This document shows, piece by piece, positions 15,001-30,000 of a DNA stretch of 64,000 nucleotides. The stretch comes from Escherichia coli (GTDB lineage: Bacteria > Pseudomonadota > Gammaproteobacteria > Enterobacterales > Enterobacteriaceae). Each line of letters begins with the position of its first letter. Position 1 is the stretch's first letter. The stretch lies in assembly GCF_041248615.1 (NCBI RefSeq), contig NZ_CP158426.1; one strand, given 5' to 3'. A program made the position numbers.

Positions 15001-18000
15001 GGCTGTTACCCGCCTGATTGAGTTGCTTTAATGCGTCACGGGAGTTTCTGATTGCGCCAGCCAGCTCTTTCGAACTGGCCTGTGCAGCACGGAATGGGCG
15101 GGTGAGTTTGTCAACCGCATTAAGAATGACCTGCAGCCGCAGGTTATTATTACTCATCGTTGGCCCCGCTTCTCTGAATCGCTTTATACCGCCATTCCAG
15201 CACTTCGGTCAGCGGCATAACGTCAGTAACGGATGGCGGCCAGTGAAAAATGGTGGCGATATCTGCCACCAGAGCGTCAACCGTCAGGCTGTCGGTAAAC
15301 CGGCAAGCACCGACTTCTTCAACAAAAAAGTGACAACCTCAACCGACATAGCTGTGAGATCTGCCGGGTCCATCTCTGCGATTTCCTGTGCAGTCAGTGC
15401 CGGACTGGAAATGCGGGGGATCACGGTCATCATCGCGTTCACATCCATATCCATAATGGCCTGCAGGCGTGTACCGCGCAGCGCACCGGACTGCGGTTTA
15501 CGCAACACAATTTCGGTAATTTCTGTTTTACCGCGCATGATGGGGGTATCCAGTTGAATGGTCTTTTCAGTCTGCTTATCGCTCATTTTATTGTCCTGTA
15601 AATTGGGTTCTGGCGCGGTATCCCGCGCCGTTCAGATACATCAGAGGCCGAGGGCGTTGCGGTGCGCTTCCATCAGGTCCACACCGTCCACAATTTCCAC
15701 CATGTTGATAAGGTCCACTTCATAGAGCACCTCACCATTGATAGTCAGCTTCGCGTAGCTGTTGGTACTGGTCACTTTGGTGGTGTTGCTTTCGCCCGTC
15801 TTCCACTCACCGGAATCCACTTCTTTGTGACGTCCGCGCACCACAAGCTCCACGGCCTGCACTTCCCCGGTATCGTCACGCTGGATAGAGCCGGTAAAGC
15901 GCAGCTGGATGCCATCCACCGTGGCTTTGCCCATCTGCTTAAACAGCAGCAGTTCAGTACCACCAATGGAAAATTCTGTATCCAGTGCACTGTCATCCAG
16001 TCCCAGATCCACATCCACCGCCCCCGGCATTCCGCCGCCGCGATACTTCTCATATTTGCGGGTGAATTTCGGCAGCGTCAGCGACTCAACGATCCCCTGC
16101 CAGTTATTCCCGTCGTTAAACAGGTTCAGGTGTTTTAATTTACGTGGTAAAGCCATGTTGTCCCCTTACGCGCTGACCTGGCTGGCGAAATTCACCAGGT
16201 ACTGATCGGTGATGCGCTGACGCAGCATCAGGTTTTCAAGTGGTGGCACTGGCGTGTAGTCGTAATCGATGGTGAGTTTTCCGGCTTTCAGAGTGTCTTT
16301 GTCGTTCACCGACTCATCCAGCCAGCAATCGCCACCAATGAGATAGCCCTGACTGACCAGGCTGCGCATTTTGGCGCGGATACCTTCGATAATGTCCCGG
16401 GCCAGCGACGGGTTAAGCGGTTTATCCACCGCCCACATGTGTGCTTCTGCCATCGTGTCCATCAGCACCTGCGCCGTGCGGGTGTAGTTTTCGAAGGCAA
16501 AGAGCGGGTCATCACTCAGGCAGCGGGAACCCCAGAAGCGGAAACCGTCTTTGCGGATAAGGGTGGTGACGTCGTTCTGGTTCAGCAGACCTGCATCGGT
16601 TGCCGGGTCCTGCAGATCCCAGAACACATCTGCAGAAATTCCGGTGACACCGTTCACGCCCACGTTGGACAGGCTTTTGTGCCACCCAGTCTGCTCATCA
16701 ATTTTGGCACGCAGACCAAGCGCACGGGCGGTGGCATATGCCGTTGCTTCGGCATTCAGCACCGTGTCCCAGCCAGTAAAGTCGGGCCAGATCAGCATTC
16801 CTTCGCGCTGGCTGAAGTTTTCACGGTAAGTGATCGCCTCCTGCACCGTCTTGCAGCCATACGCTGACAGGTAAGCAAACCCACGCAGGCTTTGCGCCAC
16901 ACTCAGCAACTCAGTAGCAACGGCTTTGTTATCGTGACCTGGCACGCCGAGAATGCGCGGTTTAACGCCGAGCTGTGTCTGGGCAGATAACAGGGCTTTC
17001 ATGCCTGTTTTTTTACCTTCAGCAGTCACTGCGCCGATGATATTGGTCGTGGTTTCTTCTTCCGCTTCACCCTGCGGCACACGCACAACAACGGTCACGG
17101 GTTTTGCCTGGTCAGCGATGGCGTCCAGCGAACGGGCCAGCGTACCGGACTCACCCGCTTTACCGCTGGCAGTCAGCACATCAGTGATCAGCACTGGTTT
17201 ATTAAGAGGAAACATTTTTGCATCGGCATCATCGCCCGTGCAGACCATACCCACGATGGCGGTGCTCACCGTGGTAATGGATCGGGTGCCTTCGTTGACT
17301 TCAACAACGCGCACCCCGTGGTGGTAATCCTGAGCCATAGTGGCGAACCTCCTGATTGGATTAGGCTTCGCCCTATGTTGAAGTGATTGTGCCTGACAAA
17401 CAGCTAAGCGCAGTTGTACCGTTATTCACACAAAATGACGGTATTTGTCTGCTTGCAGGGATAATCAAAATTATGCTGATTCAGGGGGATTCATTGCTCT
17501 TATTTGCCGGAAATTTTCTATAAATGGTAGAAACGCCTACATCAAAAATCAGTGCAATACGCTGTCTTGATTCTCCGGCCTCGAGTAAACGTCCAATCTG
17601 TGCCCACTGTTCAGTGGTCAACTTAGGACGGCGTCCACCTACTCTGCCTTTAGCACGAGCTGCAGCCAGCCCTGCCCTGGTACGTTCAACTATCAGTTCG
17701 CGTTCCATTTCAGCCAGGGCACCCATGACATGAAAAAAGAAACGGCCCATTGGGGTACTGGTATCAATACTGTCAGTCAGGCTTCGGAAATTCACACCAC
17801 GCTGGCGCAACTCTTCTATCAGCGTAACAAGATGCCGCATACTGCGCCCCAACCTGTCCAGCTTCCAGACAACCAGCGTGTCTCCTGCCGATAGTGTCCT
17901 GAGCAGCTTTTTCAGCCCCGGTCTGTCGGACTTGGTGCCACTGATTTTATCCTCAAAAATCCGCTCACATCCCGCACAGTTCAGTGCATTGCGTTGCAAA

Positions 18001-27000: not shown

Positions 27001-30000
27001 TCATACAGCTCTGCGTTGACCTCCGAAATTGCCGACAGCGCAACCTGCTTTAGACGCGGCTGCGTCACCGTGCCGTCAGTGCGCATCACACTGCGAAACT
27101 CCGACAGGTCCACATCAGGCCAGAACGGCGTATTTCTGATGATTTCCGCCTGTTCCGGTGCCTGTTCTGGCGCAACAAACTTCATGCTGCTTTCTCCTGA
27201 AATAAAGGGCGGTGGACGGGGTTTTGATGTGGCAGAGCCTTTCGCCACCCCGTGCCGCCCGTGCGCGGGGGCACGTTCTGTCAGCGGCTGTCATTGCGCA
27301 GTCTGCGCTCCAGCTGCTGTTTGTCTTTTTTCACGCCACAGCGGGGATCGAGCTGTAACGCATGGTTGAGATGGTTAAGGGCAGAAGCCGGATTGCTTTC
27401 ACTCAGGACAGCGCCAATCGCTTTATGCAGACGCGCCCGTGACTGGTCCGGCATATCCAGACCGTCTGTCAGCTCCAGCGTCTGCAACAACAGATCGGCA
27501 TCAAAGCCGGTGGCGGCAAGCATTGCGCTCTGCGCCGCGTCTGCCATTTCCTCTGCCAGCACGGTCTGCACATTGCGGTTACCCAGCGGCATCACCCAGC
27601 CATGACGCAGGGCATGACGCCCGATCTCCAGCGCCCCGGCATAATCTCCGGCATCAATGCGCCACAGCATCACGTACATCAGCACGTCATCCTGCTGTGC
27701 GCCTCCGGCAGTCAGGACACCCTCTGCCCAGGCGGCGTACTTCGGCAGCAGCTCCACCTTGATTTCCGCTTTTTTGACCGTGGACTGAACGCCCTTGAGA
27801 CGGCGGCGGTCTTCCGCCAGTTGCAGCAGCATCAGGTCATAGCCCGATGCGTGGCGAACACTGCCGCCCTCGCGGGCGGCCTGTTCAGCCTGAACGCGCA
27901 GGCGATGCTGCCGTGCGGGACTCAGGCTCATGGATTACGCTCCGGTTTCGGCTGCGGCGGCGCTGAAATCACCAATCTGGATGTTTTCCACCAGTGCGGC
28001 GCAGCGGTAGTCCTCAACCACATAGGCTTCGTTAACGGATTCAAAGTTGTCAATCCGGTCACGTTTCGGGTTGTCGATAACTGAACGACGGCGGGTGTCT
28101 TCCTGCCAGTAGATGGACAGGTTATCCAGACGGGTGATCAGCAGCGCATTCGGCGGGAAGAACGGCGCACGCACGGCCTGCAGGCCACCCATGCGTTTCT
28201 GACTGATGATCATATCGGCAGCCAGTTTTTCACTGTTTTCCTGCTCTTTGTTGACCAGCGGGAAATACTTGTCAGACAGCAGTTCACGACCACAAATCAC
28301 CACCAGATCGTCATCGTCCTGGTAGACCACGTCGATAAGCTCATTGACCGCATCCATCACCACAGCGTCCAGGTTGGCATATTCGCCCCCTTTCCCGACT
28401 TTCACCGCACCCGGTGTGGTTTCACCGCCCGTGGTGGTGCTGCCCATGACGTGATCCGGTGCATCCTCACGGATTTTCTGCAGCCAGCCTTTATTCACAT
28501 CCTGCAGTAGCGGGTTTTCGCTACGGTTGGAGGTTTTCGCACGCTTCACGCCGTTAAAACCGATCATGATGCGGTCCAGTGCCTGACGTTTCACGATGGC
28601 ATCACGGATGCGCACCTGGAAATCCTGAAACTTCGCCCACAGGTCCAGCTTCGCGTAGGTCAGTACCGTGTCAAAGTTGGTCTGCTCGCATTTGTATTCC
28701 ACATCGACCATCAGCGTCGGATCGACAGGCTCACGCTCTTTTGCGGTGGTATCAGTGGTTCCGGCAATGGTGCTGCCAACACCCAGCCCCAGCAACTGAC
28801 CAGACTGCTCAGTCACTGGCGTGACGTTAATCAGCGTCAGGAATGCGGCGGATTGCTGGATCTGGTCTTCCAGCGTCTGCTGCACGGACGGCTCCACGGT
28901 GAACTTGCTGGACAGTTCTTCAACTGCCACACCGTTCAGACGCGCCAGCTGCTGCAGGTAAGCGTTAAAAGCAAAGCGGGTATTCTTCTTCATCAGGTTT
29001 TGTGCTCCATCAGCAATTGGTCAGAGTGTCAGCGGGGGCGTTACCGCCTGTTGCACGCTGGCGGTAGTCCTGGCGGCTGTCTTCATGGCTCAGCTTGTCC
29101 ACCAGTTCGTTAAAGGCGGTCAGCTGTGCCTGCAGGGCAGTCTCCAGCTCAGACAGGCGTTCTTCCTGCTCAGACAGGGATTTTTCGGTGCGCGCACTCA
29201 GGTTCTGCTGCTCAGTGGCGACCAGTTCCACGGCCTTATGCACATCAGAGAACCGGGCGTCATCGGACTGCTCTTTTTTGGTGAACAGCGCCGTGACACG
29301 GGCAAACAGGGACGGTTTGTCCTCCTGGATTTCTTCCAGTTCGATCACCGTTTCCTCTGCAGCGGTAAAGAGATTGGCAGGATTCTGCTTGCGGTTTGCC
29401 AGCGGGTTATGGGCTGCACTGGCGCTGAATGTCAGCATTTCAGTGCCCAGACTGGCAGGGTCATCAGTGGCAGCCAGGCCGACCAGGTAGGCTTTGCCCG
29501 TATCAGCGAACTTCGGGCTGACTTCCATAGAGGTGAATAATTTCTGGCCTTTTTTCACCAGCTCCACCAAGGACTCCGTTGGCTCAACGTCGGCATACAG
29601 CGCCATCTTGCCTGCCAGCGGACCTTCCGTGATTTCTTCAGCAAACAGCGCCGTCACCTTGCCGTAGCGGTTAAAGGTGCTTTCCGGCAGATAAGACTTG
29701 ATGTGCTCAAGGTTAATCAGCGCGGTGTACACCGCCGGGTTGTAGCTGGCTGCCATCTGTTCCAGCCATTCACGCTGGATTTCGCGTCCGTCGGTGGTGG
29801 CACCTTCCACCCCGATGCGAAAACGCTTTGCTTTCACTGTCATGAGCCGTGCTCCGTTAGAAAAAACTTACTGGAGCCTTATGGTTGCGGTGATGGGGGC
29901 AGTGAAACAATGCACGGTATTTGTACCGACAACCACACAAACCGCAGGCGGGGAAAGCCTTCATTCAAGGCTGTAGGTTTGTGCCATGAACACCACACTG

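Follow-up and report, generated by a model that had tools for sequence, protein, structure and literature searches.

Three TGT-N12-ACA dyads in the stretch of Escherichia coli DNA analysed here (64,000 nucleotides, hereafter the window) are best explained as binding sites for the Ogr-family activator of the prophage that carries them, and would define four activator-dependent late promoters, a reading to which we assign a probability of about 0.9. An earlier note on this DNA had proposed that the dyads mark the late operons. This is supported, with the correction that there are four promoters for three sites, one site being common to O and P.

The window contains a complete Fels-2-like prophage of the P2 type, in which the late genes keep the P2 order and the early region is 186-like, with CI, CII, Fil and DinI/Tum-like genes (Table 1). 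No satellite is present in the window. The distal part of the V operon lies inside an invertible tail-fibre segment.

Table 1. Late-control features of the prophage, in window coordinates (PWM, weight matrix)
Feature	Coordinates	Strand	Basis
ogr, 72-aa Ogr/Delta-family C4 zinc-finger late activator	10192..10410	-	Pfam PF04606 (Ogr_Delta), E = 4.8e-22
F operon (FI, FII, E, E', T, U, D homologues)	10501..17338	-	ORF list and RefSeq annotation of identical locus
F-promoter core and leader, predicted	17339..17413	-	dyad-centred alignment with P2 pF and 186 pJ annotated starts
F-operon activator (Ogr) site, predicted, TTGTACCG-ttat-TCACACAA	17414..17433	.	dyad; first or second PWM rank in window
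V operon (V, W, J, I, H, G homologues)	19137..23423	-	ORF list, P2 gpV alignment, RefSeq
V-promoter core, predicted	23424..23470	-	P2 V start annotation, gpV alignment, geometry
V-operon activator site, predicted, aTGTATGG-agaa-CCACACAA	23471..23490	.	dyad, PWM, conservation
Cargo gene, 288 aa, no assigned function	23519..24385	+	divergent from V, S/V insertion hot spot
O operon (O, N, M, L, X, holin, lysozyme, LysB/C, R, S homologues)	24412..29843	-	ORF list and RefSeq
O-promoter core and leader, predicted	29844..29920	-	P2 geometry
O/P shared activator site, predicted, TTGTACCG-acaa-CCACACAA	29921..29940	.	divergent O (-) / P (+); dyad, PWM
P-promoter core, predicted	29941..29985	+	column alignment with P2 pP
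P operon (terminase ATPase P, portal Q)	29986..32780	+	ORF list, P2 gpP alignment, RefSeq

The exact TGT-N12-ACA dyads lie at 17415-17432, 23472-23489 and 29922-29939, and the three strings quoted in the earlier note are correct. We found that each site is a near-perfect 20-bp palindrome, TTGTRYSR-N4-YSRYACAA. Compared with TTGTRYS-N6-SRYACAA, the F and O/P sites have no mismatch and the V site has one, ATGT replacing TTGT in one of its halves. A shared CACACAAA flank had also been described; it is present at the dyads, not as an element of its own but as an extended half-site within the palindrome (its reverse complement is TTGTGTG). The window holds four copies of it against 3.3 expected, three of which overlap the dyads in the same register. 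Measured from the dyad centre, the FI start codon (17338, minus strand) lies 85.5 nt downstream of the F site (centre 17423.5) and the V start codon 57.5 nt downstream of the V site (centre 23480.5). The O/P site is centred at 29930.5, 87.5 nt from the start codon of O (29843) and 55.5 nt from that of P (29986).

Across the window, the bare dyad is no commoner than expected (13 copies against 14.9 +/- 3.8) and has no meaning on its own, since ten further copies lie in ordinary coding sequence; the case therefore rests on the extended motif and on position. For TGTRY-N8-RYACA there are four matches against 0.94 expected, and at least four were reached in just 1 of 100 shuffles; the fourth match is a host palindrome (45025-45042). 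A similar density of dyads elsewhere, which the earlier note had named as evidence against its reading, is found for the bare dyad but not for the extended motif. Furthermore, the three sites come first, second and third among 63,975 positions (22.8, 21.7 and 19.5 bits) under a palindromised weight matrix trained on 18 sites in six other phages, neither the window nor its near-twin Cartapus being included. The next-best score in the window is 11.8 bits, a gap of about 8 bits, and the background mean is -33. When each promoter class was omitted from the matrix in turn, the omitted site still ranked second or third. The three top matches fall at late-operon positions only, with none in the immunity region. 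The fourth-ranked match (29980-29997, 11.2-11.8 bits) lies over the P start codon and is taken to arise incidentally from the -10, the ATG and the coding sequence; this dyad is also in Cartapus and MLG42, and is outside the top matches of Fels-2, SEN8 and the Klebsiella phages. The fifth (10678-10703 inside gene D, 11.0-11.1 bits) is probably due to chance and is shared by Cartapus only. It lies 283 nt from the ogr start codon.

The same arrangement is found in related phages. Every Fels-2-type genome has exactly three outlier sites under the matrix, and in RE2010, which is outside the training set, these score 27.2, 22.7 and 19.3 bits, the next match scoring 2.7. A perfect dyad stands at matching distances from the start codons in nine related phages, even amid unrelated sequence. 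At V, it is found in the nine phages 55.5-57.5 nt from the start codon despite unrelated upstream sequence or cargo. The distance from the dyad centre to the P start codon is 55.5 nt in all eight phages compared, and the corresponding distances in relatives are 85.5-94.5 nt for O and 78.5-85.5 nt for F. While the F promoter of Cartapus has the window's sequence and distance (85.5 nt), the other F-promoter types (Fels-2/SEN8/RE2010, the Klebsiella phages and MLG42) share no homology upstream of the FI start codon, and each nevertheless carries a perfect dyad 78.5-83.5 nt from that codon. The dyad is kept in four F-promoter types that are unrelated in sequence. In the O/P spacer of eight phages, TTGT and CCA.ACAA are invariant and the centre is variable.

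The earlier note had placed an activator gene of the Ogr/Delta type at the prophage end, which the Pfam match of the ogr product bears out; RefSeq names this product ogr/Delta-like zinc finger protein. Its identity to P2 Ogr, 186 B, PSP3 Pag and Fels-2 Ogr is 51-68%, none of the four cysteines varies among them, and its TKERY-QCQN-NC core is invariant relative to P2 Ogr, 186 B and PSP3 Pag. The ogr product is the predicted binder of all three dyad sites. Together with the independent matrix and the match in position to the annotated sites of P2 and 186, the gene supports the earlier reading of the dyads as sites for a late activator of this class.

Next to the sites, the promoter cores contain weak -10-like hexamers only. 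A sigma-70 consensus scan of 17000-30300 found no promoter-like site at the four positions on the relevant strands, and no -35/-10 consensus, as is expected because the promoters would be activator-dependent. By P2 and 186 geometry, the F transcript is expected to start near 17365-17368 (minus strand), upstream of an AGGAGG ribosome-binding site at 17349-17354, and the O transcript, by P2 geometry, near 29872-29875 (minus strand). The O leader has a conserved block, CATAAGGC, at 29876-29883 (minus-strand reading) and a GGAG ribosome-binding site at 29852-29855. This block would suit a start a few nucleotides farther downstream. Alignment on the dyad centres gave no confident placement of a -10 element for O or F. 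For P, TAGGTT (29973-29978) aligns with the P2 pP -10 element TAGCCT, and after a further 6 nt comes the P ATG, which occupies the P2 start column; the variants TAGGTT and TATGTT align column for column with TAGCCT, and the ENT90 layout is alike. The P core also has an invariant block, CGGGGAAAG, at 29949-29957.

We considered whether the dyads could be functionless occurrences of a short common pattern, as the counts of the bare dyad and of CACACAAA alone, both at chance frequency, would allow. The matrix trained on other phages places exactly these three sites on top with a large gap to the next, the extended motif exceeds its expected count, the distances from four operon starts are fixed, and the dyads are kept in nine phages where the surrounding sequence is not. 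The conservation and matrix results effectively refute chance, which we regard as extremely improbable. A role for a protein other than Ogr, for example a host factor such as CRP or another regulator of the phage (CI, an Apl/Cox-like protein or the DNA invertase adjoining the F site), is suggested by the TGTG...CACA half-sites, which resemble those of CRP, and by the position of the F site 48 nt downstream of the invertase gene. However, the CRP consensus TGTGA-N6-TCACA sets its TGT and ACA triplets 10 bp apart, compared with 12 at the dyads. The inversion ends near 18115-18129 and 19937-19954, away from 17414, and the motif is also present at V and O/P, where nothing inverts. As the sites coincide with annotated Ogr/B sites of P2 and 186, and as they match the late operons as a set, with none in the immunity region, we consider another binder improbable.

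The dyads could also act as RNA or DNA hairpins, that is, as terminators or attenuators between operons and not as protein sites. The V site does stand at the end of the upstream unit and folds at -8.4 kcal/mol on the minus strand, and the V dyad of Fels-2 comes immediately after the stop codon of S, with the potential for an 8-bp stem. Nonetheless, the folding energies are weak (0 to -8.4 kcal/mol) with no T-run following, and a terminator scan calls none of the three dyads. Its sole match nearby (29928-29915, minus strand), a small hairpin that overlaps one half of the O/P dyad, lacks conservation in Fels-2. The outer TTGT/ACAA carries most of the conservation, the inner positions being retained as R, Y or S classes only, as is typical of a protein site, and no compensatory changes were seen in the stems. 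Furthermore, the divergent genes flanking the O/P site have no need of a terminator between them. Hairpins are accordingly a very improbable explanation, and the activator-site reading is the one that we develop below.

Under the activator-site reading, Ogr would be made after induction and would bind, by analogy with P2, at a site with its centre some 55-58 bp before the transcript start. Bound Ogr would then recruit sigma-70 RNA polymerase to cores that have no -35 element. In P2, activation by Ogr goes through the C-terminal domain of the RNA polymerase alpha subunit and is blocked by rpoA109. The symmetric O/P site would serve both divergent promoters, and the remaining two sites would drive the minus-strand operons V...G and FI...D.

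The V site is also close to the divergent cargo gene, which the earlier note had assigned to the second ATG (23519) on account of the dyad. That start is correct, although evidence other than the dyad supports it. A 288-aa homologue aligns without gaps beginning at M17 of the long ORF, the RefSeq annotation of an identical E. coli locus supports 23519, and a TAAGG ribosome-binding site precedes it. The cargo protein has no match in Pfam or PADLOC. A search by eye for a cargo promoter gave a weak TTGCAC-N17-TAATAC candidate at 23435-23463 that no tool supports.

At V and P, the start codon falls where the transcript should begin. The V start codon (23423) is confirmed by alignment with P2 gpV and lies at the expected transcript start; that of P is confirmed by alignment with P2 gpP and has no in-frame start upstream. 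A conserved Shine-Dalgarno sequence is absent before V and P in the 8-9 phages compared, whereas O and F carry GGAG or AGGAGG. Because the start codons coincide with the predicted transcript starts and lack a Shine-Dalgarno sequence, the V mRNA is predicted to be leaderless or to have a leader of 0-2 nt, and the P mRNA to be leaderless, with starts expected near 23423-23425 (minus strand) and 29985-29986 (plus strand), respectively. Leaderless V is already known in P2, whose record annotates the V transcript start at the first base of the V coding sequence; a passage in PMC4633059, with reference to the P2 late-promoter paper, also counts P2 as a source of leaderless genes. Our literature search found no report of a leaderless terminase gene P, and no data on Fels-2-type late promoters (transcript start, footprint or Ogr dependence).

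We propose, at what we judge to be even odds, that in Felsduovirus, Elveevirus, the Klebsiella genera and ENT90 the O/P site is placed for a leaderless P with its ATG at +1, like V, and, as a linked idea, that the V promoter travels with the cargo cassettes of the S/V hot spot. The V dyad is only 13-29 nt from the divergent cargo start codon, so that Ogr binding could turn V on and cargo off at the same time. If P is leaderless like V, two of the four late operons begin without a ribosome-binding site, unlike in P2, 186 and PSP3, in which a 23-nt leader carrying such a site precedes P.

These results place four late promoters for a prophage family that is widespread in E. coli, Klebsiella and Salmonella, provide a sharper consensus with exactly three sites found per genome, and settle the start of the cargo gene. 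They are correct but ordinary, adding little biology beyond what P2 and 186 have taught. The exception is a testable prediction, which concerns leaderless mRNAs at the head of the terminase and baseplate operons and, in its second part, a V promoter inherited along with the cargo cassettes inserted upstream of V.

The closest known system is P2, for which a passage in PMC3931495 gives four Ogr-dependent late promoters with the consensus TGT-N12-ACA. The window resembles P2 in gene order, in its four operons, in the type of dyad, in the activator site shared by O and P with one site each for V and F, and in an Ogr-family gene downstream of D. P2 transcripts start 55.5-58.5 nt from the site centre (in the P2 record, pO and pP 55.5 nt either side of the shared site and pF 57-59 nt from its site), with which the centre-to-start-codon distances of the window agree; the distance to the P2 V start codon, the annotated transcript start, is as in the window. 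In contrast to those of the window, the P2 sites are imperfect, with TGT-N12-cCA at pF and pO/pP and TGT-N11-ACA (or TGT-N12-CAA) at pV, and score just 4.7-6.4 bits under the Fels-2-type matrix. P2 Ogr is 51% identical to that of the window, and in P2 the terminase gene P is preceded by a 23-nt leader bearing a GAGG ribosome-binding site, whereas the window's P start codon stands at the predicted start.

The record of phage 186, with its B-dependent promoters p12, pV and pJ (and p32), annotates B-protein sites at the places equivalent to those of P2 (the O/P, V and F positions). One is common to the divergent terminase and scaffold genes, and another precedes the sheath gene, whose annotated transcript start is 57.5 or 58.5 nt away according to the definition of the site centre used. 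Phage 186 differs in its degenerate right half-sites (TGT-N12-cCA), which reach up to 9.3 bits under the Fels-2-type matrix, and in its terminase gene, which has a leader and a ribosome-binding site and lies 78.5 nt from the site centre. Collectively, the sites of P2, 186 and PSP3 score poorly under this matrix (4.7-9.3 bits); given the degeneracy of their right halves, it is position and the conserved TTGTG half, and not identity over the full sequence, that justify carrying the mechanism over to the window. The Delta-activated promoters Psid and PLL of satellite P4, together with PSP3 Pag and phiR73 Delta, can be likened to the window's system through their activator family (Ogr_Delta, PF04606) and their class of site, which a passage of PMC3931495 gives as TGT-N12-ACA.

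An earlier note on this sequence had proposed that three TGT-N12-ACA dyads, at 17415-17432 (F site), 23472-23489 (V site) and 29922-29939 (shared O/P site), are late-operon sites of an Ogr-type activator. We found that all three are exact at these positions and that the strings quoted for them are correct. The proposed reading is supported by a P2-like layout, by conservation among relatives, by weight-matrix ranks and by the presence of an ogr gene.

The dyads lie in a complete P2-type prophage of the Fels-2 lineage (approximately 10.2-44.4 kb), which is flanked in the E. coli chromosome by ybjL on one side and by rcdA, ybjJ, mdfA and deoR on the other. 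The late region shares 96% identity with phage Cartapus, 500465-1 and many Klebsiella prophages; for the O/P region, identity to Fels-2 is about 91%. The product of ogr has a Pfam match to Ogr_Delta (E = 4.8e-22) and shares 51-68% identity with P2 Ogr, 186 B, PSP3 Pag and Fels-2 Ogr, with all four zinc-binding cysteines invariant in this comparison.

Prophage features and distances from dyad centre to start codon
Feature	Coordinates	Strand	Distance in window (nt)	Distance in relatives (nt)
ogr	10192-10410	-		
F operon, D to FI	10501-17338	-	FI 85.5	FI 78.5-85.5
DNA invertase	17481-18053	-		
Invertible tail-fibre segment	18115-19954			
G, H, I, J, W, V	up to 23423 (V start codon 23423)	-	V 57.5	V 55.5-57.5
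Cargo gene	23519-24385	+		
S to O	24412-29843 (O start codon 29843)	-	O 87.5	O 85.5-94.5
P and Q	29986-32780	+	P 55.5	P 55.5 (every full genome)

We compared eight full and one partial Fels-2-type genomes, among them Cartapus, Fels-2, Yersinia MLG42, SEN8, RE2010 and three Klebsiella phages of different genera, with O/P regions 75% to 99% identical to the window. A perfect TGT-N12-ACA is present at each position in all genomes examined. FI is preceded by promoters of four unrelated types, with homology to the window ending at the FI start codon; V is preceded by the end of gene S in some genomes and by a cargo cassette, of which there are at least four different ones, in others. Within the homologous O/P spacer the site centre varies, but TTGT and CCA.ACAA do not. 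Two further blocks of this spacer, outside the dyad (29946-29957 and 29876-29883), are invariant across eight phages. The AG.CGGGGAAAG block occupies the place expected for a -35 region of the P promoter, GCCTTATG, which reads CATAAGGC on the O strand, lies just upstream of the predicted O start, and a block resembling the O-side one, ACATAGGG/ACATAAGG, is found in unrelated F promoters.

A motif search gave the same three sites. Using a palindromised weight matrix built from 18 sites of six relatives, with the window and Cartapus left out, we found the dyads at ranks 1, 2 and 3 of 63,975 positions (22.8, 21.7 and 19.5 bits), against a fourth-best score of 11.8 bits and a background of -33 +/- 10. 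When one promoter class at a time was left out of the matrix, the omitted site still ranked second or third. Every genome scanned has exactly three outlier sites, including RE2010, which is outside the training set (27.2, 22.7 and 19.3 bits, next match 2.7).

The earlier note had also asked whether equivalent dyads are as dense elsewhere, and the answer depends on the pattern. The bare dyad, with 13 copies in the window against 14.9 +/- 3.8 expected from shuffles, is at chance and by itself uninformative, whereas slightly longer patterns are specific: TGTRY-N8-RYACA has 4 matches against 0.94 expected, a count reached in just 1 of 100 shuffles, and TTGTRYS-N6-SRYACAA fits the F and O/P sites without mismatch and the V site with one. 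The site consensus in Fels-2-type phages is TTGTRYSR-N4-YSRYACAA, and therefore the CACACAAA flank of the earlier note is the extended half-site (reverse complement TTTGTGTG) and not an element of its own; three of its 4 copies in the window (3.3 expected) overlap the dyads in the same register.

The only match to TGTRY-N8-RYACA besides the three dyads is a perfect host palindrome, TTGTGTACA-AA-TGTACACAA (45024-45043), between the host genes rcdA and ybjJ and just beyond the prophage; it does not score as an Ogr-type site, and the TetR-type regulator RcdA may use it as an operator. A second perfect TGT-N12-ACA (29980-29997, TGTGCCATGAACACCACA; matrix rank 4) lies across the P start codon at a distance of 58 bp from the main O/P site and is probably incidental, because it is shared with Cartapus and MLG42 and absent from Fels-2, SEN8 and the Klebsiella phages. 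We also observed an 11-mer, ACGGTATTTGT, both beside the F site (17438-17448) and overlapping the O/P site (29913-29923); the F region resembles a circular permutation of the O/P site (ACAAATACCGT + TTTGTGTG...CGGTACAA), which hints that the two late promoters long ago underwent a duplication or recombined with each other.

Chance occurrence, to which the frequency of the bare dyad would be no obstacle, is excluded by the specificity of the longer patterns together with the comparative test across relatives. Binding of CRP or another host factor does not fit the spacing: TGT and ACA lie 10 bp apart in CRP sites and 12 bp apart in the dyads. A symmetric sequence might instead act as a hairpin or terminator. 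However, folding energies are 0 to -8.4 kcal/mol without a T-run, the outer bases are the most conserved while inner positions are kept merely as base classes, and compensatory stem changes are not seen among relatives.

The F site could also be read as a crossover site of the DNA invertase, but the overlapping end points of the inversion lie elsewhere (approximately 18115-18129 and 19937-19954), and the motif is also present where nothing inverts. The inversion itself is visible in E. coli NRZ14408 (NZ_LT599825), which is 100% identical to the window with the sole exception of one inverted 1,840-bp segment, the tail-fibre segment in opposite orientation. The adjoining gene encodes a Gin/Cin/Hin-type serine invertase, and the two chromosomes seem to show an active host-range switch, each in a different orientation.

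At the V site, the overlap of the dyad with the longer cargo ORF had been taken to argue for a start at 23519. That start holds, although the overlap by itself is weak evidence, and in RE2010 the cargo start codon is just 13 nt from the dyad. The longer ORF from 23471 is not the real gene, because Klebsiella phage ST437-OXA245phi4.1 has in the same place a 288-aa homologue (57% identity) that aligns gap-free from M17 (23519) to the end, the RE2010 homologue (35% identity, same position) aligns from residue 1 of the short form, the RefSeq start at the identical E. coli locus is the base corresponding to 23519, and TAAGG precedes it at ribosome-binding distance. The cargo protein, 288 aa long and encoded divergently from V, gave no match in Pfam or PADLOC. 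At this S/V (P2 orf30) insertion hot spot, the cargo of other relatives is unrelated or absent. The sequence between dyad and V start differs per cargo type while the dyad and its spacing are kept, which suggests that a V promoter of its own comes with each cassette. Two more cargo genes lie downstream of Q: a RES-domain gene (32833-33987, minus strand; RES family NAD+ phosphorylase in RefSeq) and a KAP-family P-loop NTPase (34350-36293, minus strand) matching the PADLOC candidate defence family PDC-S49 (E = 3e-156).

The spacing at V and P further leads us to predict that both mRNAs are leaderless in the Fels-2-type lineage. In a dyad-centred alignment, the P -10 hexamer (TAGGTT in the window, TATGTT in most relatives) falls on the same columns as TAGCCT of P2 pP, and six bases further on, the P2 start column is taken by the A of the P start codon. 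The P start codon is well supported, because there is no in-frame start upstream and the alignment of the protein with P2 gpP begins at residue 3. Across eight phages the P distance does not change, while the distance on the O side differs by up to 9 nt, and in the more distant relative ENT90, TAGCCT lies seven bases before the P start codon with a dyad about 56.5 nt upstream. No conserved Shine-Dalgarno sequence precedes P or V in the compared Fels-2-type phages, whereas O has GGAG and FI has AGGAGG. P2, 186 and PSP3 differ in that their P is preceded by GAGG and has a leader of 23 nt. In P2, the V mRNA is already known to be leaderless: the GenBank record of the phage has the transcript start at 10308, where the V coding sequence begins, and P2 is among the cited sources of leaderless genes (PMC4633059). 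We found no description of a leaderless terminase mRNA in the literature.

The P2 model is the best supported for the window dyads: Ogr would be made after induction, would bind the palindrome about 55 bp upstream of each transcript start and would bring sigma-70 polymerase to weak cores without a -35 element. We infer Ogr binding, transcript starts and alpha-subunit contact from P2, 186 and P4. No sigma-70 consensus promoter was detected at any of the four promoter positions, which fits recruitment by Ogr.

The 186 record annotates one B-protein site common to pV and p12, and a pJ site with a start at 14159. It also contains a strong Fels-2-type palindrome without binding-site annotation, TTTGTATGGGATTACACACAAA (29574-29595), which at 17.1 bits scores above its annotated B-protein sites. 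This palindrome is flanked by t95a, the tum terminator, and by orf97, whose start codon is 19.5 nt away.

According to published work, TGT-N12-ACA is common to all four late promoters of P2, which require the zinc-finger protein Ogr (PMC3931495). In the P2 record, a single activator site (3057-3087) serves pO and pP, whose starts (3016 and 3127) both lie 55.5 nt from the site centre; the pV site is at 10239-10266 and the pF site at 17555-17583 (starts 17626-17628). As in P2, the window has three sites for four promoters; the P2 sites, however, are imperfect, with TGT-N12-cCA at pF and pO/pP and TGT-N11-ACA at pV. Taken together, these comparisons support the three dyads as canonical Ogr-type late-promoter sites in the Fels-2 lineage, and add to the known P2-type picture, in a small way, a sharper consensus and a predicted leaderless P mRNA.
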